From assembly GCA_016930515.1 (NCBI GenBank), contig JAFGGO010000149.1, positions 1-38,239 on the forward strand: 38,239 nt of DNA, given 5' to 3'. Positions within the stretch are counted from its first letter, which is position 1, and each line of letters starts with the position of its first letter. Under the pieces are notes generated by a model. It did not search any database. It had not been told where the DNA came from and was given only the letters and a program-made list of their open reading frames with translations. This stretch comes from Promethearchaeota archaeon (lineage in GTDB: Archaea; Asgardarchaeota; Lokiarchaeia; Sigyniarchaeales; SOKP01). Below are positions 7,174 to 26,404 of this stretch, in pieces. The position numbers were made by a program, and so were the translations under genes.

Positions 7174-7377
7174 TTATCTTTGGTAAGATGCTCTTTTTGC
7201 ACCAAGACTGTCGTTTTGACCGCCATACGTGCCTTTTACAATTCGCTTGTGATAAAGCTCTCTAAACCTAATTCTGGGAGCTTTTTTCTTGGTCGAATTC
7301 ACGCCCGTTTTAGGAATTTTAGGCGTTTGTTGTCTTACTTTTCCTGCTTTTGTTAAACTACCGTGACTACCAGGTAT
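7174..7377 (-). CDS. rps30e: 30S ribosomal protein eS30, apparent ATA start
   Basis: Manual translation (ATA)[48 protein letters not shown]...[21 protein letters not shown] is the eS30 signature. Not in the ORF track because no ATG/GTG/TTG lies between the in-frame TGA (7390-7392) and the conserved N-terminus. Confidence 0.93.
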
Positions 7378-7762: not shown

Positions 7763-8251
7763 ATGTCGAACATAAATCAAAAAACCAAGATATGGATGTG
7801 GGCTTTGATCTTGGCCGTATCCATTATCGTGGTCGTTGTAGACGCCATTTTTTTGCGGGAAATATGGTGGGCGTGGCTGGTCGTGCTCGTGCTCGTGATG
7901 ATTGGATGCGTTTTTTCGTTTTCTAACTATTTTTTCGTTCCTAAAAAGCATTGTCCTCGATGCAACGCCGAAGTCCCCTCACAGTACACCCAAAACTGCC
8001 CGAAATGTGGTTTGAGACTCGTGACGAGGTGCGTGGATTGCGGTAAGTACATCTCCGTCTACCAGTACGGAAAACTTTCGAAGTATTGCAATCAATGTGG
8101 GCTCGAATTGGACTTGAGGGAGGTTCAGGTGGAAGTCATCGAAAATCCTTATGTGAGCGAAAAGAAAGTCCGCTTTTGCCCGAATTGCGGCGTGAATATC
8201 GAAGAAGACAACTTGAGGTTTTGTGCGCTCTGTGGAACTAAAATAATTTGA
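7763..8251 (+). CDS. Membrane-anchored multi zinc-ribbon (double zinc ribbon-type) protein
   Basis: Two N-terminal TM helices followed by six CxxC motifs. Confidence 0.8.
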   Translation: MSNINQKTKIWMWALILAVSIIVVVVDAIFLREIWWAWLVVLVLVMIGCVFSFSNYFFVPKKHCPRCNAEVPSQYTQNCPKCGLRLVTRCVDCGKYISVYQYGKLSKYCNQCGLELDLREVQVEVIENPYVSEKKVRFCPNCGVNIEEDNLRFCALCGTKII

Positions 8252-8510
8252 ATATGTAGCGGAAGGGAAAAAATCTCTTCTTATAATTACTAGATTATTA
8301 AATGCATTGAAATTTTAGTAAGAAATTAAAATAAAATAAAAATTAATTGATTAAGCTTTCTTAGATTTTGGAAAATGCCTTTTAAGTTGTGATTTAACCG
8401 CTTTTTTGTAATTTAGACAACATTAAATGTTGTAGCTTGACTTTAACATTGTAAATTAGAGCGTTAAATAAATCAAAATGATTTTAAAGTGAAATAAAAG
8501 GAGAAAATAA

Positions 8511-8576
8511 TGGGAACTGAGGGATTTGAACCCCCGACCAACAAGTCTCTATACCTCATATGACTTATTTGAGTCA
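8511..8576 (-). repeat. Diverged copy of the tRNA-Trp 3' exon plus an intron-like remnant (att-like direct repeat)
   Basis: 8511-8546 matches 12876-12911 at 30/36 positions, with T-arm GGGGG-TTCAAAT-CCCTC. The adjacent tcat..ttattt..gagtc resembles tRNA intron 2. No 5' half is present. Confidence 0.8.
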
Positions 8577-8657
8577 ATTTTTTAAAAAAATATGATTATT
8601 GCCATTTAAATAAATATTACTAAATATTTTTATAATTATTAGATTATAAATGATAAC

Positions 8658-8984
8658 ATGACAACAGAAAATTCAAAGAAATCAAAAATTACTGTATTTA
8701 TGTGGCATATTGGAAGAATCCTTACTGATATGATGATAATTTCTGATACTACGGGTTCGCCTATTATTTCACAGACATTTCAGGCGGGATCAAAATTATT
8801 TGATGTTCTTGGTAATTGTGTTTACAACAATCAATCATTCAAAAAGATATTCCTTGCTTTAAATGACTTGATCACATCTCTAGATTATGATTTTGATGAT
8901 AATTTTAACGATACAATAAAATATGCTCAAGATTTTTGTCAAGATTTTATTGTATTTTTAGAAGAAAATAAATTAAAGAATTAA
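8658..8984 (+). CDS. Hypothetical protein (108 aa, helical)
   Basis: ATG-started AT-rich ORF followed by a T-tract; no recognised motif. Confidence 0.55.
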   Translation: MTTENSKKSKITVFMWHIGRILTDMMIISDTTGSPIISQTFQAGSKLFDVLGNCVYNNQSFKKIFLALNDLITSLDYDFDDNFNDTIKYAQDFCQDFIVFLEENKLKN

Positions 8985-9009
8985 GTTTAAGAATATTTTT
9001 TTTTATTAT

Positions 9010-10542
9010 CAGTATCAAAGGAAGTAAATCTCTAAATTTGATTTAATTGAATCTTTTTTTATTAAAATTTCATTCCAATTTTTATTGATCGTGAATAAAT
9101 TATTAACGATTACTTCCAATAGACATTTACCTTAAAACTTATAAGAGAAAAGTGGTTATATTTATGTATGCGCATAAAATATTTATCTCCACTTTCAGAT
9201 TTGGAAGTTGAGTTAAAACCACTTTTCTCAAATGAATATATGCTAGCATTTTTTAAATATTTTTGTGATCAAGTTGAATCTCAATCGTGGTGGTGGAGAA
9301 AGGTTAAAAACGCAAGATACGACGCCGAGGACTTTCTAAGGGTTTTTTTTTATTCCGAAATTACTGGAAGATCGTTGGATAGTGCCAGTGAAAGGTTGAA
9401 CAAGTATTTGCTGAATAAGAAAAGAGGAAAGCAAAAAAAATACGCTGATGGGCGGAAAAAGCGGGAAGTCCCACATCAAACCGAAGTAAACAAGCTTTTA
9501 CGCCGCATTGGTCTCGAAAAAGCGAGGAAAATCCTGCGAGCGTGTTTAGACAATCAATTACTGGAAGCCTTGAGATTGAACCTCATTTCAAGAAAGGTCA
9601 ATGTTTTAATTGACTTCACGGAACATTCTTACTACGGCAAGCGGAGAGATGAGATGATCAAGGGGACAAATCGGGGGAAAGGAACGAGCAGAATGAGGCA
9701 TTACTTGGGATTCTCGATTTTGTCGAGTGGACTTCATCTTTTTGCGGGGTTAGAGCACGTGGCAAAGGGACAATCTAAAATACCCGTGATCGTGAAATTT
9801 CTCGAGCATTTAATTGGGTTAGGATTTGAGATAAATTACGTGATGATAGATCGAGAGTTCTATCAGGCCGAGCTTTTAAAAGAGATCAAGAGACTATATG
9901 GGGAGGTGTTAGTTCCTTCCAAGTCGTACAAGAAAATCAACGCAATGATTGAAGAATATTTGAACGGAACGGGAAAAAGAATTAGAAAATATACGATATC
10001 AACCGCTCCTGGCGGAACCAAACAATTTTCCCAAGACTTGTACTTGATATTAAGGACAAAAAAGGGTCATTCCCTTTCTACCGTCAAGCAAGACTTTAAA
10101 AAAGGGAGGCTGACTTTAGACGACGCCAAGAAGCTCATGCACGCCGTGATGACCACCCAGAAACCAAGGGGAGACACGAGCTCGTGGGCGTCCCGCACGT
10201 CTCAGTTTTATAAAAAACGATGGAACATTGAAACGGGATTTTCCGACTTAAATCGGATGGGTTGTCGTTGGAAATCAAGATACGATACCACGAGATATTT
10301 GGACCTGTTGGTTCGCATGCTCCTTTACAATTCGTGGAAAATGAACGGCGCATGGCTTCAAAAATGCAGTAACACGGGGTATAATCCGCAAAAGTGGACC
10401 TTGCAATCCAACCAGGACGCTTTAGAAGAACTGTTTCTCGAAGCCTAGGGAAAATTACCCGTGGTCTCTCAAAAAGGTGATGATAATGTCGGATGTGAAA
10501 AAGAATAAACATTAATAGAAAAAATTACTTCCTTAGATACTG
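9010..10542 (+). mobile_element. ISH3-family (IS4-like) insertion sequence
   Basis: TIRs CAGTATCAAAGGAAGTAA (9010-9027) and the reverse complement of 10525-10542, CAGTATCTAAGGAAGTAA (17/18 match); 5-bp TSD ATTAT at 9005-9009 and 10543-10547. Confidence 0.92.
9168..10448 (+). CDS. DDE transposase, ISH3/IS4-like
   Basis: LIDFTEHSYYG (D1), MIDREFY (D2) and YKKRWNIETGF (Y-x2-R-x3-E signature). Confidence 0.92.
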   Translation: MRIKYLSPLSDLEVELKPLFSNEYMLAFFKYFCDQVESQSWWWRKVKNARYDAEDFLRVFFYSEITGRSLDSASERLNKYLLNKKRGKQKKYADGRKKREVPHQTEVNKLLRRIGLEKARKILRACLDNQLLEALRLNLISRKVNVLIDFTEHSYYGKRRDEMIKGTNRGKGTSRMRHYLGFSILSSGLHLFAGLEHVAKGQSKIPVIVKFLEHLIGLGFEINYVMIDREFYQAELLKEIKRLYGEVLVPSKSYKKINAMIEEYLNGTGKRIRKYTISTAPGGTKQFSQDLYLILRTKKGHSLSTVKQDFKKGRLTLDDAKKLMHAVMTTQKPRGDTSSWASRTSQFYKKRWNIETGFSDLNRMGCRWKSRYDTTRYLDLLVRMLLYNSWKMNGAWLQKCSNTGYNPQKWTLQSNQDALEELFLEA

Positions 10543-10577
10543 ATTATAAAGAGAAAACTCGGAATATTCTGAAAATA

Positions 10578-11363
10578 TCAATTAAATTTCTTGATTTGCT
10601 TATTGTATTCCTTAATAATATAATCTTGCATTTTATCAATTTTTACGGTATAAGGAACAATAATTAATATAATCCCCTGATCTTCGCATAATTGTTTCTT
10701 AATTCGGTCGCGGTCTTGTTGATCTAAGAATTCTTTGAAGTCTTTATGAAAATAAGTGTAATAAAGATAGTGCTGTTTGCCATTGTATTCAAATGCAATT
10801 TTTAAGTCTTCATTGTAACCATCTAAATGCATCTTGTGCTCAGTTTTTGGATTAATTAACCATTCGGGTCTTACAGTAGGAAACTTTGCATTAAAGATTT
10901 TTTCAAAGGCTTTTCGACATCCATTTTCCATATTGCTTTTAGAACAATTAGGACACCATGAATTCCTCTTAATACATGTTGGTATTGTTTTCCATCGATG
11001 ATTACATTTTCCACATTGCCATTCTAAAGGTGTTCTATTATTTATGTATTGTTTTGATAAACATTTACCTGATACACCAGTTCTTTTTATACCAACATTT
11101 TTTGCAAGTTCATACATATCTTCAATAGTCAATTTAATGTTTTGAGCACATTTTCCACACCAAGTTCCTCTTTTAACTTTGTTTGGTTTTGCCTTCCAAG
11201 TATATCCACATTTACCACATTGCCATTCAAGTTCTGTCTTATCATTGATATATTGTTCTGACAAACATTTTCCAGCTACTCCTGTTTTTTCTAAACCAAT
11301 TTTTATTGCTAGGTTTTTCATTTGTATAATGCTTATCATTTTTTCACCTTTGATTTTTTTCAA
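10578..11363 (-). CDS. Zinc-ribbon repeat protein with C-terminal PD-(D/E)XK/Vsr-like endonuclease domain
   Basis: Two repeats of KCLS.QYIN..T.LEWQCGKC...W......RxxWCxxC, then RPEWL..P......LDGYNEDLKIAFEYNGKQHY...D..K...C...GI.LI.VPY, typical of standalone/homing-type endonucleases in phages and large DNA viruses. Confidence 0.8.
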   Translation of the reverse strand: MKKIKGEKMISIIQMKNLAIKIGLEKTGVAGKCLSEQYINDKTELEWQCGKCGYTWKAKPNKVKRGTWCGKCAQNIKLTIEDMYELAKNVGIKRTGVSGKCLSKQYINNRTPLEWQCGKCNHRWKTIPTCIKRNSWCPNCSKSNMENGCRKAFEKIFNAKFPTVRPEWLINPKTEHKMHLDGYNEDLKIAFEYNGKQHYLYYTYFHKDFKEFLDQQDRDRIKKQLCEDQGIILIIVPYTVKIDKMQDYIIKEYNKQIKKFN

Positions 11364-11373
11364 AACATTCTTG

Positions 11374-12702
11374 TTAAGTCAGTTGCAATATCTTATTTAA
11401 CTGACTGAACCAACCACATCTTGATGTTCTTGATGATGTTGGTGCAGTCAGTTGAATTGATGGAGTATGAGATACTGATTGTTTTAACAACTGATTGAGT
11501 TGATTTTTCAGAAAACTTCTTTTCATATTACATTGTTTAGGCCTAAAATAATTTAACCAACCACTAACAAAATGAAATAATGAATTTTGACACTCAAGGT
11601 CTTTTAATTGTATATTCAAGGTAATTTCTCTCACATGTTCAAAAAATTTTTCAATAGATCTTTTTGAAGGAATACATTGGATGAATGCTTGATTATTGTT
11701 TTTTATTTGTTTAAATGTAAAACCTAAAAATTCAAAACCCATATTAGATCTAACGATTTTTGTCTTTTTCATATTCAAATTTAAACCTCTTTTTTTTAAA
11801 AAGAGGTTTAATTTAGGAACTACAAGGTTTTTCAGTATTTTATAAGAAGGAGCAATAACAATAAAATCATCTGCATATTTAATTAAACTAATTCCTCCAT
11901 TATTAGTTGTTCTTGTTAGAAAAGGAATATATTTTCTATTATCAATTCCGAATAATTGTTCGATTCCATCTAAAGCAATATTAGCTAGTAATGGACTTAT
12001 AACAGCGCCTTGGGATAATCCCTTAGCTGATTTATAATAATTTCCTTTATAAAAATAACCTACTTTAAGCCACTTATTTATTAGAGTCTTGAAATTTTTT
12101 ATTTTTTTTAGTAGTTCAATATGACTAATATTTTCAAAAAATTTTGAAATATCTGCAGTTAAAATCCAACAGAACTGAATTGAATTGTTTGCTTTATCCT
12201 TAATTCTTCCTATGGTTTGAAGATCAGTTTTAACTTGATTTATTGCATTATGAATACTATGATTTTTTCGATACCCGTATGTATTAGAGTCTAATTTTAC
12301 TTCCCACTCTGCTTCTAATGCCATCAATATTATCTTCTGCATTATTCTATCTTTAATAGTAGGAATTCCTATGGGCCGTTTTTCATTATTATTTTTATGA
12401 ATATAAACACGTTTAACGGGGAGTGGTTGGTAATTCTTAAAATTCAGTTCTTTTAAAAGCTCCCTTAGCTGTTTGGGGGATTCATAAAGTTTTCCATCAA
12501 CACCTGCCGTTATTTTTCTTTTATAATTCCTATTAGAAAAAAAAAAACTATACATTGCAAATAATTTTACATTTAATGAATGTATAAACAAATTTTGTAA
12601 AGATCTAACGGTTTTCCAACGCTTTTCGGTACAAGCTCTAAAAATACGTTTTTGAAGTTTATCTACATTATGTTTAACCTTAGACCAATTATAATCCTTC
12701 AA
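11374..12702 (-). CDS. Group II intron-type reverse transcriptase/maturase-like protein with truncated domain X and no En domain
   Basis: RVT_N-like start (W..V...V.KLQKRIFRA), TAGVDG, KRPIGIPTIKDRIMQ, ADISKFFENISH, GLSQGAVISPLLANIAL, YADD, GFEFLGF, GWLNYFR. Confidence 0.92.
   Translation of the reverse strand: MKDYNWSKVKHNVDKLQKRIFRACTEKRWKTVRSLQNLFIHSLNVKLFAMYSFFFSNRNYKRKITAGVDGKLYESPKQLRELLKELNFKNYQPLPVKRVYIHKNNNEKRPIGIPTIKDRIMQKIILMALEAEWEVKLDSNTYGYRKNHSIHNAINQVKTDLQTIGRIKDKANNSIQFCWILTADISKFFENISHIELLKKIKNFKTLINKWLKVGYFYKGNYYKSAKGLSQGAVISPLLANIALDGIEQLFGIDNRKYIPFLTRTTNNGGISLIKYADDFIVIAPSYKILKNLVVPKLNLFLKKRGLNLNMKKTKIVRSNMGFEFLGFTFKQIKNNNQAFIQCIPSKRSIEKFFEHVREITLNIQLKDLECQNSLFHFVSGWLNYFRPKQCNMKRSFLKNQLNQLLKQSVSHTPSIQLTAPTSSRTSRCGWFSQLNKILQLT
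11377..11498. repeat. Four alternating-orientation AGTCAGTTG-type repeats forming a long hairpin inside the RT 3' end
   Basis: AGTCAGTTG 11377-11385, AACTGACTG 11399-11407, CAGTCAGTTG 11445-11454, CAACTGATTG 11488-11497; inner stem ACCAAC 11409-11414/GTTGGT 11438-11443. Confidence 0.75.
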
Positions 12703-12875
12703 AAAAATTGAAATAGAATTGGAATGTTCAATATCCAGCAGTAATATTGTCTAACATCTCCAATTTATCTTTATACCGACCATTTTTAAATGTAAAATGC
12801 AATTAAATTCTTTTTTCAATAAAAGTTTAAAAAGTACAATATTCAAAGCAAAATAATAATTTAAAAGAAAGTAAA

Positions 12876-13010
12876 TGGGAGCGGCCGGATTTGAACCGAC
12901 GACCAACAAGTTTCTTCATCGAAATTATTTTTCGAGTCGGGATCTGGAGCCTTACGGTCGGAATCATTAAAAATTCCGAATGCCGCGATACCGAGCTTCG
13001 CCACGCCCCC
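12876..13010 (-). tRNA. tRNA-Trp(CCA) with two introns (29/30: 12952-12980; 37/38: 12912-12943)
   Basis: Acceptor GGGGGCG/CGCTCCC-A, D-stem GCGA/TCGC, anticodon stem GCAGG/CTTGT, loop CT-CCA-GA, T-arm GTCGG-TTCAAAT-CCGGC. Removing the 29-nt and 32-nt introns gives a 74-nt cloverleaf. Confidence 0.88.
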
Positions 13011-13159
13011 GAAATATTCAAGCGAACCGAAGTTTTCTTGGTTAAGTTACCTAACAAAAAAAATTATTTAAATTTTATATAGTTTTTTGTTTAATGATGG
13101 TGATATTTCATTATTATAGATTTTAAAAGCCTTACAATTTTTCTTTAAATCCCGTTCAA

Positions 13160-14902
13160 TTAATTTTTCTGTTTATTATACAACTCTTTAACCAAGTCTT
13201 CCAATTTGAGTTTATTTTCACAACCCTCACAAAATATACTTTCCTCGTTCAATATCGCTCCACACAATTGATAATATAGTTTATTTTGTTCCATCTTACC
13301 TGTAGAATTTAAGAATTGTTCTGAAACAGGTATTTTATTTTCAATCGTTTCAAGCTTGCTTTCGATTTCACTATTTCGTTTTTCCTTCGAAAGATCCATT
13401 CCTATTTTTCTTAAAATGATCTTGTTTTTTTCTGCTATTTCTGCATCAGAAGGCCAAGTGCGCTTTATGAGTGATGATTGGAGGGCAAACGGTTTTTCTA
13501 TAGAGTTAATGCGCACAATGCATTGTCCTTTCTTGAGTTCTGATAAGTATTTTACCTGCCACTCTCTCAAGTTAAGAAGTTCTTTCATAAGGTCCTTCTG
13601 CATATGAGCCTGAAAAGCTACCAGAACACCGCAATTAGCGAGGATTTCCTTGCTTAAGTTTGGCCTTGTTGCAAGTGTGATGAGACATTCACCTGTTCCC
13701 CGCAGCAAGAGGGCAATATCTTCAAGATAACTTGTAAGTTTCGTTCGAGAGCTGAGTTCCTGCGGTGCGAAATACTGGGCGTCTTCGATAACGGTCACAT
13801 GTCGAATGCCCTTGTAATCCTTGCTCCCTTGTTCCAAATTCCAATCCCATAAGTATTTGAGGATCATATTGAGAAAAAAGAGCGCATCCTCTTTTTCACC
13901 CCCTAATTTGATGATAGAACTGAGATCAAGCAATACTTTATGCTTAAACAGTTCTCGAACATCTAACGATTTCTTATCGAAAATGTGCTTCAAGGTGCCC
14001 ACGCTGTACCTTCGTATTCTGTTTTCTATGGCAACCACGCTTTTTTTGAAGGTAATGTCATCATTGTGCTCATTTTTAGTATATCTCTGAGCAATTTCCT
14101 GAAATTTATTCCAACTCCTAAAATTCTTATTCGTAACCACCTTTCTAAGAATATCAATGAACACGCGTTCCATTTGCGGGCTATAATCCACATTCTCAAG
14201 CAAACCGCCACTTTCAAATATTTGATAAACCCGTTCTGCGTGTATGTTTGGATTACTCCTTTCCGGATTAAATATATTGATCGAAAAATTTACCCCTGGC
14301 TTGAGTATGAGTAGATCCTCGATAGTTTTTTGAAGATGCTGATATTCTCCCTTGAATTCTACGAGTAAGAAAGGAATTTGCTTATGATTTTTCGAGAATT
14401 GAAGGAGTAAGTTTTGCATAAAGTTACTTTTACCCGCGCCTGTGATGCCGCATACAAATATATGTTGCGCCATATCATCCAGATTTAGCGAAAATTGGTG
14501 CTTGGTTTTGTTTTTATTGCATACCCGTCCTAAGCAAATCGATCCTTTCGACTTCCATCTTGATGGATATTCCATAGATATTTGATGCTTTGATATGAAA
14601 GGACGCGTGTTTTTTAAGATAGGAACGATGAGCACCCACGAAAAGCAGGTCCCACAAAGATACAACAAATTTCCAAGAGTAATTTTTGATATTTGAAATT
14701 TCAATATTGCCAAAATTATTAATGATATTAAGATCATCAAACAGATTCCGTAAAATATCGTGAAAATCCTTATGAACCAAATATTTTCTGATTTATTGTT
14801 TTTGATGTGAAAATAACGCACGATTGTGCGTATAAGTCCCGTGATTATTACAAAAACAGCAAATATTAGTGCAGTGAAAAAGATAACATCAGGCATAAAC
14901 AA
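13160..14902 (-). CDS. Membrane-anchored HerA/FtsK/VirB4-like ATPase (DUF87-type)
   Basis: Three N-terminal TM segments; HIFVCGITGAGKS Walker A; LLVEFKGEY; Walker B-like VTVIEDAQ; LRGTG arginine-finger-like motif; degenerate C-terminal zinc ribbon. Confidence 0.85.
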   Translation of the reverse strand: MFMPDVIFFTALIFAVFVIITGLIRTIVRYFHIKNNKSENIWFIRIFTIFYGICLMILISLIILAILKFQISKITLGNLLYLCGTCFSWVLIVPILKNTRPFISKHQISMEYPSRWKSKGSICLGRVCNKNKTKHQFSLNLDDMAQHIFVCGITGAGKSNFMQNLLLQFSKNHKQIPFLLVEFKGEYQHLQKTIEDLLILKPGVNFSINIFNPERSNPNIHAERVYQIFESGGLLENVDYSPQMERVFIDILRKVVTNKNFRSWNKFQEIAQRYTKNEHNDDITFKKSVVAIENRIRRYSVGTLKHIFDKKSLDVRELFKHKVLLDLSSIIKLGGEKEDALFFLNMILKYLWDWNLEQGSKDYKGIRHVTVIEDAQYFAPQELSSRTKLTSYLEDIALLLRGTGECLITLATRPNLSKEILANCGVLVAFQAHMQKDLMKELLNLREWQVKYLSELKKGQCIVRINSIEKPFALQSSLIKRTWPSDAEIAEKNKIILRKIGMDLSKEKRNSEIESKLETIENKIPVSEQFLNSTGKMEQNKLYYQLCGAILNEESIFCEGCENKLKLEDLVKELYNKQKN

Positions 14903-16594: not shown

Positions 16595-17155
16595 TTAATT
16601 CTGATTGTTTAATACGATTTCTTCCGAAAATTTCTTTGGATTCACGAGCGAACCTCTTACGGGACAATTTCTTTCCACTCTTTCAAGTACTTGTTTTATT
16701 TTTCTTATATTTTCGTCTGATTCAATGAACCACGTGATTTTGTAATCGTAAAATCCAGGTAAAGGCGCATCCTTAAGGATCAGAACGGCTCTCTTGTCGT
16801 AAGTAGCCTCAAGTTTTACTTTCAGCGATTTAATTTTAACATCAGCGAAGGTAAAATAGATCAATGCAGTGATTTGCATGCAATTGCCTAACGAGGCAAG
16901 TAATTGGTTCATTGCGGTGGAGATCGTTCCCGATCCATTCAATTCCTTTGGTGCATCGCATTCAATCGAGATATTACCGATTTTCGTCCGAACGTGAAGA
17001 TTTTCAACCTGTTCCGATTCAGCAACCATCGTAGATATGTAAAGCCTGTCTCCTTCTTCGGTAAACTTGTACTTGTTCATATTATCCAGCCGATTTTTAT
17101 AAGCGGAAACGGTTTCGTCACTTATCAACTTCTTGCTCATGGTTAGCATAATCAT
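16595..17155 (-). CDS. OsmC/Ohr family protein
   Basis: DAPKELNGSG, LLASLGNC and ERNCPV (two conserved Cys). Confidence 0.85.
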   Translation of the reverse strand: MIMLTMSKKLISDETVSAYKNRLDNMNKYKFTEEGDRLYISTMVAESEQVENLHVRTKIGNISIECDAPKELNGSGTISTAMNQLLASLGNCMQITALIYFTFADVKIKSLKVKLEATYDKRAVLILKDAPLPGFYDYKITWFIESDENIRKIKQVLERVERNCPVRGSLVNPKKFSEEIVLNNQN

Positions 17156-26203: not shown

Positions 26204-26404
26204 ATAATAATTCCCATTCGTTGCTTTAGTTGTGGAAAATTAATTGCTCACATATATCAACCTTATAAAGACATGTTAGAGAAAGGAGAACCATCAGATA
26301 AAGCTTTCAACGAGTTAGGCATCAAAAGATTCTGTTGTCGTAGAATGATTGTTGCTCATGTCGATCTAATTGACGATCTTCTCAAATTTCCTCGCTTGCA
26401 ATAA
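26204..26404 (+). CDS. rpoN: DNA-directed RNA polymerase subunit N (Rpo10), apparent ATA start
   Basis: Manual translation (ATA)IIPIRCFSCGKLIAH...LGIKRFCCRRMIVAHVDLID..-TAA. GGAGG at 26189-26193; no in-frame ATG/GTG/TTG between the upstream TAA (26162-26164) and the conserved N-terminus. Confidence 0.95.
   Translation: MIIPIRCFSCGKLIAHIYQPYKDMLEKGEPSDKAFNELGIKRFCCRRMIVAHVDLIDDLLKFPRLQ

Follow-up and report, generated by a model that had tools for sequence, protein, structure and literature searches.

The stretch of DNA analysed here in its entirety (hereafter, the window) is 38,239 nt of a Promethearchaeota archaeon genome. Read along the minus strand it carries a tRNA-Trp gene, a reverse transcriptase (RT), a nuclease, an IS, a convergent ORF and a second tRNA 3' half, in the order proposed by a first-pass annotation made from the sequence alone. 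The features of the locus are:

12876–13010, minus strand: intact host tRNA-Trp(CCA) gene (Rfam tRNA, 37.3 bits), the allele of its own genus
12748–12875, minus strand: AT-rich leader of 128 nt, too short for intron domains I-III
11374–12747, minus strand: group II intron-derived RT, 457 aa from ATA 12747 or 442 aa from TTG 12702
11340–11460, minus strand: RT-nuclease linker, in frame in fused relatives and here carrying a TAA (11376–11374) and a frameshift
10578–11339, minus strand: homing-endonuclease-type protein of 253 aa, with two DUF4379/CapR-like C4 zinc repeats and a Vsr/EDxHD-like nuclease domain
10543–10577, minus strand: first segment of the 3' tail that the fused relatives also have; the IS interrupts it
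9010–10542, plus strand: ISH3-like IS (transposase 9168–10448) with terminal inverted repeats and a 5-bp target duplication, ATTAT
8996–9004, minus strand: A9 tract with which the shared 3' tail ends
8658–8984, plus strand: convergent ORF for a 108-aa protein of unassigned family
8511–8548, minus strand: orphan tRNA-Trp 3' half, identical to the intact gene at 30 of 36 positions

The absence of a recombinase also held: none occurs among the scanned ORFs of the window, and the single tyrosine recombinase of the genome is on another contig. Two spacings required correction. The start homologous to that of related RTs is ATA 12747, placing the RT 128 nt from the tRNA, and the roughly 170 bp given earlier corresponds to TTG 12702 (173 nt). 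We rejected the ATA as a sign of decay because ATA, ATT or ATC occupies the start position of rps30e in this family. Similarly, the 10-bp gap described between RT and nuclease depends on a nuclease start at TTG 11363, the likelier start being ATG 11339 behind GGTGA; the gap is a broken in-frame linker. Contigs from the probable source run, which are not independent of the assembly, match positions 10510–13125 with zero differences, and this makes an assembly error at the linker less likely. RNA contigs gave no coverage of the stretch, a result that bears neither for nor against expression.

The RT has the intact YADD reported for it, matches RVT_N and RVT_1, and keeps 59 of the 74 conserved core columns of group II RT0-7. 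Its thumb/domain X has diverged (GIIM 15.1 bits against a cut-off of 23; TIGR04416 266 bits against a cut-off of 300) and is better preserved in the fused relatives, and domain D has been lost. Group II introns have been reported from Asgard archaea (bioRxiv 10.1101/2024.12.10.627823), and in a tree built without any G2L4/G2L5 reference the RT-linked clade (99) is sister to the RT of an intact intron and nests among Promethearchaeota group II intron RTs, with which the window RT shares 38–45% identity. The RT therefore appears, from its sequence, to descend from these introns, whose RT/maturase of about 500 aa comes without an endonuclease. The same sequence precedes the start codon in both: the last 25–30 nt of the leader, and these alone, are clearly common to the fused relatives and to the pre-ORF sequence of an intact group II intron. 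In contrast to those introns, the element is without domains I-III, V and VI, its thumb has diverged, and the D domain is replaced by a zinc-repeat/Vsr-like endonuclease, not HNH. Neither Rfam nor a custom model made from related introns found domain V/VI in the window, as the first reading had indicated, or around the fused copies, with intact introns scoring 40–90 bits. Upstream of the RT, in the 128 nt that separate it from the tRNA, there is no D1-D4 match, whereas relatives have one. The RT is ribozyme-less as proposed, and this extends to the fused relatives, which also have no intron RNA. We considered a maturase acting in trans on an ORF-less intron and rejected it, finding no DV/DVI among the matches listed for two genomes (G000 and G029), which may be incomplete.

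The closest relatives of the RT (50%) and of the nuclease (59%) are one and the same fused ORF, present in two genomes of another genus (892 aa in G029, 823 aa in G035) and the best match of both window proteins. The coupling of RT and nuclease originally suggested is thus borne out and is not due to chance: the closest RTs are not found in complete introns away from this nuclease but fused to it. The fused copies sit in an 18.7-kb island at a site unrelated to that of the window, and the flanks of the two sites differ. The linker DNA is homologous to that of the fused relatives (score 159, against a shuffle maximum of 78), and its conservation in the RT frame shows as a dN/dS of 0.27, measured over only 22 codons. 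What had been described as a two-gene element is therefore a derived state, and the window copy has been split secondarily by a stop plus a frameshift. Because the ATA and ATG starts both have ribosome-binding motifs, it could still make both proteins separately; it is probably attenuated or decaying. A long hairpin (11395–11457) lies within the linker, and we rejected it as a conserved ncRNA, since its z-score is -5.5 in the window and -1.6 in G029 and only an 8-bp stem is common to both. A structure model of the full fusion was too low in confidence for use (pLDDT 52).

Substitution patterns show that purifying selection on the RT continued after ribozyme loss, at a dN/dS of about 0.2–0.3. 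Between the window RT and that of G029 the ratio is 0.31, at dS of about 1.4, with 0.19–0.24 in the core and 0.53 in the thumb, and between G029 and G035 it is 0.22. Under neutral drift at 0.1 substitutions per site, 0 of 1000 simulations left a stop-free frame. Constraint is nonetheless relaxed: 67–68 of the 90 conserved columns are retained, and the intron-type reference RTs retain 87 on average. The unit is broken in some strains, one allele having a stop at codon 233 on two Logan strain contigs.

The nuclease keeps the residues conserved in its family and matches PHROG endonuclease families. It had been called PD-(D/E)XK-like, and its fold is instead Vsr/EDxHD-like: the nuclease domain model (pLDDT 94.6) finds Vsr and I-Bth0305I as best folds (Z 9.6, rmsd 2.6 over 105 residues for Vsr 1cw0; Z 9.2, rmsd 3.5 over 96 for 3r3p), with R2 chains at E 0.29–0.93 only. 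On this model it is best read as a CapR/DUF4379 plus Vsr-like homing endonuclease, distinct from the R2 enzyme. Homing endonucleases of this type carry 3–5 zinc repeats (PMC12350094); the relatives have three or four and the window protein two. RT-linked nucleases and the closest RT-free ones fall in one clade with moderate support (81/86), and the RT-linked nucleases alone gave a p-AU of 0.39 as a monophyletic group. Between loci that are 97% identical, the zinc array and first half of the nuclease have been swapped for a 70%-identical version. DGR-type adenine-biased mutation was rejected as the cause, the differences by eye not being A-biased and dN/dS being 0.35. We also rejected the RT-free nuclease of L155 as an RT-deleted derivative: it has a 10-nt upstream leader motif, but the alignments were no better than shuffles.

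Downstream, a 3' tail of 45 nt ending in an A9-10 tract is common to the window and the fused relatives (reached in 1–3 of 2000 shuffles) and is absent from all seven RT-free nucleases compared. A9 follows 1.9% of stops in the window genome. On the other strand the tract is a T9 run, 11 nt beyond the point where the 108-aa ORF stops, and possibly serves as a terminator for that neighbour. The nested IS of the first-pass annotation proved to be ISH3-like, and is a later passenger. The RT-nuclease unit itself has no recognisable target duplication in the window, and the G029/G035 copy is flanked by a 9-nt candidate (p about 0.02, post hoc).

The intact tRNA-Trp gene has two introns (about 12980–12952 and 12943–12912), and its spliced form is 1 nt apart from the intron-less allele of genus-mate G003. 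ARAGORN called no tRNA in the window or miscalled Ser; Trp was settled by Rfam and the relatives. Compared with relatives, the gene is inverted relative to the upstream TPR-rps30e-DZR block. In T-stem and acceptor, the orphan half is closer to the allele of other genera (35/36 identical) than to that of this genus (30/36), and it was rejected as part of a split tRNA, the genome having no matching 5' half. Relatives have empty tRNA-Trp sites: G002, G003 and G005 are without the window cargo, with the contigs of G002 and G003 ending within 0.3–0.8 kb. The locus resembles tRNA-integrating islands with att duplication in having cargo flanked by a complete tRNA on one side and a repeated 3' half on the other, with empty sites in genus-mates. 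It differs in that no integrase of its own occurs at the locus, the repeat comes from a foreign allele, the block is inverted, and related loci contain stacked one-gene cassettes. The 108-aa protein is not an ORFan as first labelled, since homologues 47–60% identical exist, including some behind tRNA-Trp in two other lineages, in one case beside an RT-free nuclease. tRNA-Trp immediately precedes each of the three closest RT-free nuclease loci; one of these also has the 108-aa ORF, and one sits among three tRNA 3' halves. The tRNA-Trp association belongs to the nuclease rather than the RT, because these closest RT-free relatives sit behind tRNA-Trp and the fused copies do not. Targeting of tRNA-Trp through the RT, as previously suggested, is not supported by this distribution, in which the 18.7-kb island of the fused copies has no tRNA and RT-free nucleases occupy the tRNA-Trp site. 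The site is a cargo hot-spot with repeated 3' halves, and the tRNA half repeat and 108-aa ORF would be scars of its cargo, not made by the RT.

The unit, split or fused, was found in 3 of the 161 genomes searched, one copy in each, and the close identical copies at several sites expected of an active retroelement occur in none of them. Searches of metagenome, genome and viral collections, a 50%-cluster library and the Atlas, all of limited reach, gave no further fused copies, and no description of the fused form was found in the literature searched.

We tentatively read the locus, at somewhat less than even probability, as a secondarily split copy of a rare ribozyme-free selfish element that moves by nuclease-primed retrotransposition. 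The ancestral element would have been one ORF, without ribozyme, comprising a group II intron-type RT, a thumb, a zinc-repeat array and a Vsr-like homing endonuclease. A group II intron may have inserted upstream of a homing endonuclease living behind tRNA-Trp, after which deletions would have taken the D domain together with domains I-III and V-VI, bringing the RT into frame with the nuclease. In the proposed mechanism the zinc array would select a DNA site, the Vsr-like domain would cut it, and the RT would prime from the free 3' end and copy the element's transcript from its A-rich 3' end, target-primed and without splicing. Sequence comparison shows that this copy and the fused ones have a common ancestor, that the intron RNA was lost, that the RT has remained under purifying selection, that the unit occupies two unrelated sites and that its 3' tail is shared. 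Retrotransposition is favoured by the tail running to A9-10, the differing flanks, the selection on the RT and the 9-nt candidate duplication. Against it, both sites fall in regions of DNA-level cargo, where the unit may have been a passive passenger, and it is single-copy and present in 3 of the 161 genomes searched. The relaxed constraint, the thumb dN/dS, the stop at codon 233, the lack of a recognisable target duplication in the window and the possible terminator role of the A tract also speak against it.

A DNA-level homing endonuclease, cutting a site that is then repaired from the carrier allele, could instead drag the RT along as a selected accessory that helps, for instance, in break repair or binds RNA, with no movement through RNA. 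We regard this as unlikely, but several observations are consistent with it: PMC12350094 describes the family as one of homing endonucleases, the three closest RT-free nucleases, in one clade with the RT-linked ones, are directly behind tRNA-Trp, and the swap of zinc array and half-nuclease is a signature of DNA recombination. It leaves unexplained, however, why a 3' boundary at the A tract is shared despite differing flanks. Further, carriage of the RT would purge stops but alone would not keep YADD and a core dN/dS near 0.2, and the nuclease has its own start codon, so that the RT frame is not needed. Domestication of intron and endonuclease into an RT plus nuclease defence or abortive-infection module kept by the host seems improbable. 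The support for it is contextual: defence systems often recruit RTs that have no ribozyme (PMC8632793), exchange of DNA-binding repeats is compatible with an arms race, the G029 island contains SMC/AAA (weak LmuB/GajA matches), Schlafen/AlbA and HerA-like genes, and in a Logan strain the gene beyond an HTH matches PADLOC PDC-S54 at 7e-100. The nuclease, however, is without any PADLOC match, the only DRT/retron profiles that the RT matches are generic or weak, with scores far under the NCBIfam cut-offs, the searches gave no conserved ncRNA, and the window neighbours are non-defence genes. More improbable still is a dead group II intron remnant that came by chance into frame with an endonuclease gene and never functioned jointly with it. 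Rarity, relaxed constraint, long branches, the broken linker and the codon 233 stop would fit such a remnant, but an open frame of 457 codons, its catalytic motifs intact, persists in two lineages at dS of about 1.4 after a shared junction and ribozyme loss, and even G029 and G035, whose alleles are close, give a dN/dS of 0.22.

Known systems resemble the element in part. CapR/DUF4379 plus EDxHD/Vsr-like homing endonucleases (PMC12350094; I-Bth0305I, PMC3239194) likewise have a Vsr-like domain after tandem C4 zinc repeats, but these replace the RT inside an intact intron or stand alone, whereas here the endonuclease is linked to an RT in an element that has lost the ribozyme. Like G2L RTs (PMC8632793), which are seen as an intermediate of domestication, the RT is group II-like without intron RNA; its ribozyme loss appears independent and recent within the group II intron tree, and a fused Vsr-like endonuclease is not described for G2L in the literature searched. 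Among DRT/retron systems there was no match to a described RT clade, partner or ncRNA. The parallel to R2 drawn earlier stands for architecture but not for a common enzyme or ancestry. As in R2/NeSL/Utopia non-LTR elements (PMC4640811), the fused relatives have a single ribozyme-free ORF with the RT followed by zinc motif(s) and nuclease; an A-rich 3' end is possible, and some eukaryotic families of that kind target tRNA genes. Unlike R2-type elements, RT and endonuclease share one ORF only in G029/G035 and are split in the window, the protein begins with an intron-type N-terminal extension and no N-terminal zinc finger, the zinc repeats follow the RT, the endonuclease family appears to differ (R2 structure match E 0.29 at best), and the RT arose recently from a group II intron. 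The likeness to R2 is convergent, not ancestral.

Group II introns are the presumed source of non-LTR retrotransposons, which would have arisen from them by loss of the ribozyme and gain of a priming endonuclease (PMC8632793, Box 1). The literature searched describes no ribozyme-free prokaryotic element with an RT plus priming endonuclease layout. That such a retrotransposon, using target-primed reverse transcription, was born in Asgard archaea from an RT and a Vsr-like homing endonuclease as an independent replay of the step from group II intron to non-LTR element is an idea that we hold to be doubtful; by analogy, the layout resembles that of eukaryotic retrotransposons. If the unit is instead DNA-mobile or defensive, it would still be an undescribed RT-nuclease pairing, of narrower interest. 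The window copy represents a second, deeply diverged lineage at a different site, and it shows that the fusion arose long ago, that selection acted on it after the ribozyme was lost and that its location has changed. A family with a non-LTR-like layout occurs in the archaea most closely related to eukaryotes, and its natural variants (fused with three or four zinc repeats, split, RT-truncated and RT-free) make the step from intron to retrotransposon testable in vitro.

The minus-strand gene order described in the first-pass annotation for positions 8511-13010 was recovered in full. In that order, the features are as follows:

tRNA-Trp(CCA) with two introns, minus strand, first in order (Rfam)
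Reverse transcriptase (RT), minus strand, after the tRNA-Trp; RVT_N and RVT_1 matches, YADD intact, maturase match below threshold
Zinc-repeat nuclease, minus strand, after the RT
9010-10542, ISH3-like insertion sequence (IS) with a 5-bp target duplication
108-aa ORF, convergent to the RT-nuclease strand, after the IS in minus-strand order
Second tRNA-Trp 3' half, minus strand, last in order; 30/36 identical to the first tRNA

A single base separates the spliced tRNA-Trp from the allele of genus-mate G003, which has no introns. The island is indeed integrase-free: no recombinase was found at the locus among the window ORFs, and the one tyrosine recombinase of the window genome (G000) lies elsewhere. 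Where RT and nuclease homologues have a named source, the label is Lokiarchaeia or Promethearchaeota, which points to an Asgard host.

Two genomes of a different genus have RT and nuclease in a single open frame, G029 (892 aa, four zinc repeats) and G035 (823 aa, with three), and among the related genomes searched this frame holds the best matches to both the window RT (50%) and the window nuclease (59-60%). No other RT-nuclease fusion turned up among the long homologues of the two proteins. The RT-nuclease linker DNA of the window is homologous to that of G029 (score 159, against a shuffle maximum of 78) and is kept as protein in the RT frame between the window and its relatives, so that, judged from these alignments, the fusion is the ancestral state and the window copy a broken fusion. 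The window linker is interrupted by a stop (TAA, 11376-11374) and, within a few more codons, by a frameshift, and the nuclease retains its own ATG at 11339, preceded by a GGTGA motif. The proposed coupling of RT and nuclease is thus strengthened by the single ORF of the closest relatives, and the proposed "two-gene" design gives way, since the split is derived. The codon matching the relatives' RT start is ATA (12747), which we rejected as a sign of decay because the rps30e start position can be ATA, ATT or ATC in the window's family. It has one of these codons in several genomes of the family and ATG in others, and window rpoN likewise has no ATG at the homologous start (positions for these observations: window 7174-7377, minus strand, and ~26204-26404, plus strand; loci L135, L137, L138, L142 and L153).

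The RTs of the window, G029, G035 and the Logan strain (an allele of the fused ORF from Logan contigs) form one clade (SH-aLRT 99) in a tree of 102 RTs, and the sister of the fused-type RT clade is an RT within an intact group II intron (support 96). Ribozyme domains V and VI (DV/DVI) are present at 14/14 other genome RT loci tested. Rfam and a model built from related introns found no ribozyme parts near any RT of the clade, and no DV/DVI was found elsewhere in G000 or G029; both searches thereby confirm the noted lack of a domain V after the window RT, and an RT without intron RNA holds for its fused relatives too. The only intron-derived noncoding remnant is a short stretch preceding the RT start codon. 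Between window and G029, RT dS is ~1.4 and dN/dS 0.31 overall, the RT core being lower (0.19-0.24) and the thumb, the diverged maturase domain X region, higher (0.53); dN/dS is 0.22 between G029 and G035. Simulated neutral drift (0.1 substitution/site) left stop-free frames in 0/1000 trials. The clade RTs keep 67-68 of 90 conserved columns (reference RT mean, 87), and two Logan contigs have an RT stop at codon 233. By these estimates, constraint on the RT is relaxed, though purifying selection persisted after ribozyme loss. Contig C79 of the window genome (L023:12854-15871) encodes another group II-like RT, which is shorter and lacks DV; the two ORFs after it are, by eye, putatively Cas1- and Cas4-like.

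RT-dependent targeting of tRNA-Trp, as first suggested, found no support: the fused G029 and G035 copies have no tRNA nearby, and RT-free nucleases occupy the tRNA-Trp site. The fused copies occupy one edge of an 18.7-kb island flanked by phosphatase and hydrolase genes, which are direct neighbours in G012 and G022. Every nuclease with a score of at least 283 bits to the window protein is either linked to an RT or, without one, placed directly behind tRNA-Trp (L060, L153, L155), and all others score at most 240 bits; the seven at or above 283 bits form one clade with moderate support (81/86). The association with tRNA-Trp is a property of the nuclease and of the site. L060 has the order tRNA-Trp, HerA-like ATPase, nuclease, 108-aa ORF, and L155:1-3230 (ENA ERZ23498673) has three tRNA-Trp 3' parts of differing lengths with a cargo gene between each. 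A decayed fourth part directly follows the L155 nuclease stop, which makes the stack integron-like but integrase-free. The orphan half in the window is 35/36 identical to the allele of other genera. In relatives, tRNA-Trp follows a TPR-rps30e-DZR block on the same strand; the tRNA-Trp block of the window (8252-13165) is inverted relative to them, and the leader of its tRNA is homologous to that of G003. RT-free nucleases, stacked 3' parts, a foreign half and an inverted block together argue that tRNA-Trp is a cargo hot-spot in the window's family. Recombination at the site may be due to the one tyrosine recombinase, acting in trans, to an integrase since lost, or to the repair of cuts made by the nuclease.

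Several further observations concern this site. The usual downstream neighbours, methyltransferase and GPN GTPase genes, lie on contig C71 of the window genome, with no tRNA trace beside them. Across L135-L149 and L153, tRNA-Trp introns vary widely in number and position (none, D-arm, anticodon stem, 37/38, variable region, T-loop); the acceptor and T-stem alleles are distinguished by compensatory changes. A membrane-anchored HerA/CedD-like ATPase (window 13160-14902, minus strand) has a 75%-identical paralogue at G000:C66:5162-6898; further copies, among them L150:799-2415 and L060:203-1960, are found both close to tRNA-Trp cargo and within the G029 island.

Once the IS is taken out of the window sequence, the 45 nt following the nuclease stop can be aligned with the G029 and G035 sequences as far as an A9-10 tract; the alignment score was reached by 1-3/2000 shuffles and by 1/2402 genomic post-stop controls, probably the locus itself. 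Seven RT-free nucleases lack this tail. The A tract of G029 and G035 overlaps a 9-nt sequence of which a second copy lies ~100 nt before the start codon (p ~0.02, chosen post hoc); the window has no equivalent repeat, and its own A tract could serve the convergent 108-aa ORF as a terminator. Shared tail and repeat hint at insertion as a unit through RNA. The G029 island (L021) also has a 90-bp non-coding repeat, promoter-like or a cassette site and found only in G029 and G035, in three same-strand copies (8077-8167, 13194-13284, 16801-16900), two of them preceding cargo genes and the third lying immediately past the 3' tail of the RT-nuclease unit.

CapR/DUF4379-like repeats with a Vsr/EDxHD-like domain define a homing-endonuclease family (PMC12350094), whose layout the window nuclease shares. 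Its structure model (pLDDT 94.6) is closest to Vsr (Z 9.6, rmsd 2.6, 105 residues), followed by homing endonuclease I-Bth0305I (Z 9.2, rmsd 3.5, 96 residues); the best E value of an R2 chain is 0.29. The family is common in the window's group (40/101 genomes), and zinc-repeat number across RT-nuclease copies ranges from 2 to 4. Identity of the Logan allele to G035 is ~97% in the RT, the linker and the nuclease end but drops to ~70% across the zinc array and the initial half of the nuclease domain (L152:4700-5700 vs L022). Recombination most likely swapped the specificity module of this allele; since two sequencing runs agree, a contig chimera is the less likely cause. Beyond a winged-HTH gene, the Logan locus has a strong PADLOC PDC-S54 match (L152:1161-2378), where G029 has other cargo.

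The element differs from a group II intron in its absent ribozyme, and matches no described DRT or retron. It is not an R2-type element either, given the Vsr-type fold, the group II intron origin of the RT and the lack of the N-terminal zinc fingers that R2-type elements have; the suggested parallel with them extends to architecture alone. The literature searched, with incomplete coverage, contained no such fusion and treats Asgard group II introns, G2L RTs and the CapR/DUF4379-Vsr endonuclease family separately.

Our leading reading, held with less than even confidence, is a selfish ribozyme-free element: the zinc array and Vsr-like domain would cut target DNA, and the cut end would prime the RT, which would copy the element's own transcript, the element thus moving through RNA. 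Its status as a true prokaryotic non-LTR-like retrotransposon is doubtful; it occurs in 3/161 genomes searched, one copy each, and this rarity, with the broken alleles, disfavours active retrotransposition. DNA-level homing with an accessory RT, to which the RT-free nuclease copies and the Logan module swap point, is somewhat unlikely. A defence role for RT and nuclease, suggested by the genes neighbouring the fused copy in its island, seems improbable, and a dead remnant, contradicted by selection on the RT, more improbable still. A selfish element of the kind we favour would work like a non-LTR element at most by convergence. Sequence comparison documents descent, ribozyme loss, selection and relocation of this putative RT-nuclease element.
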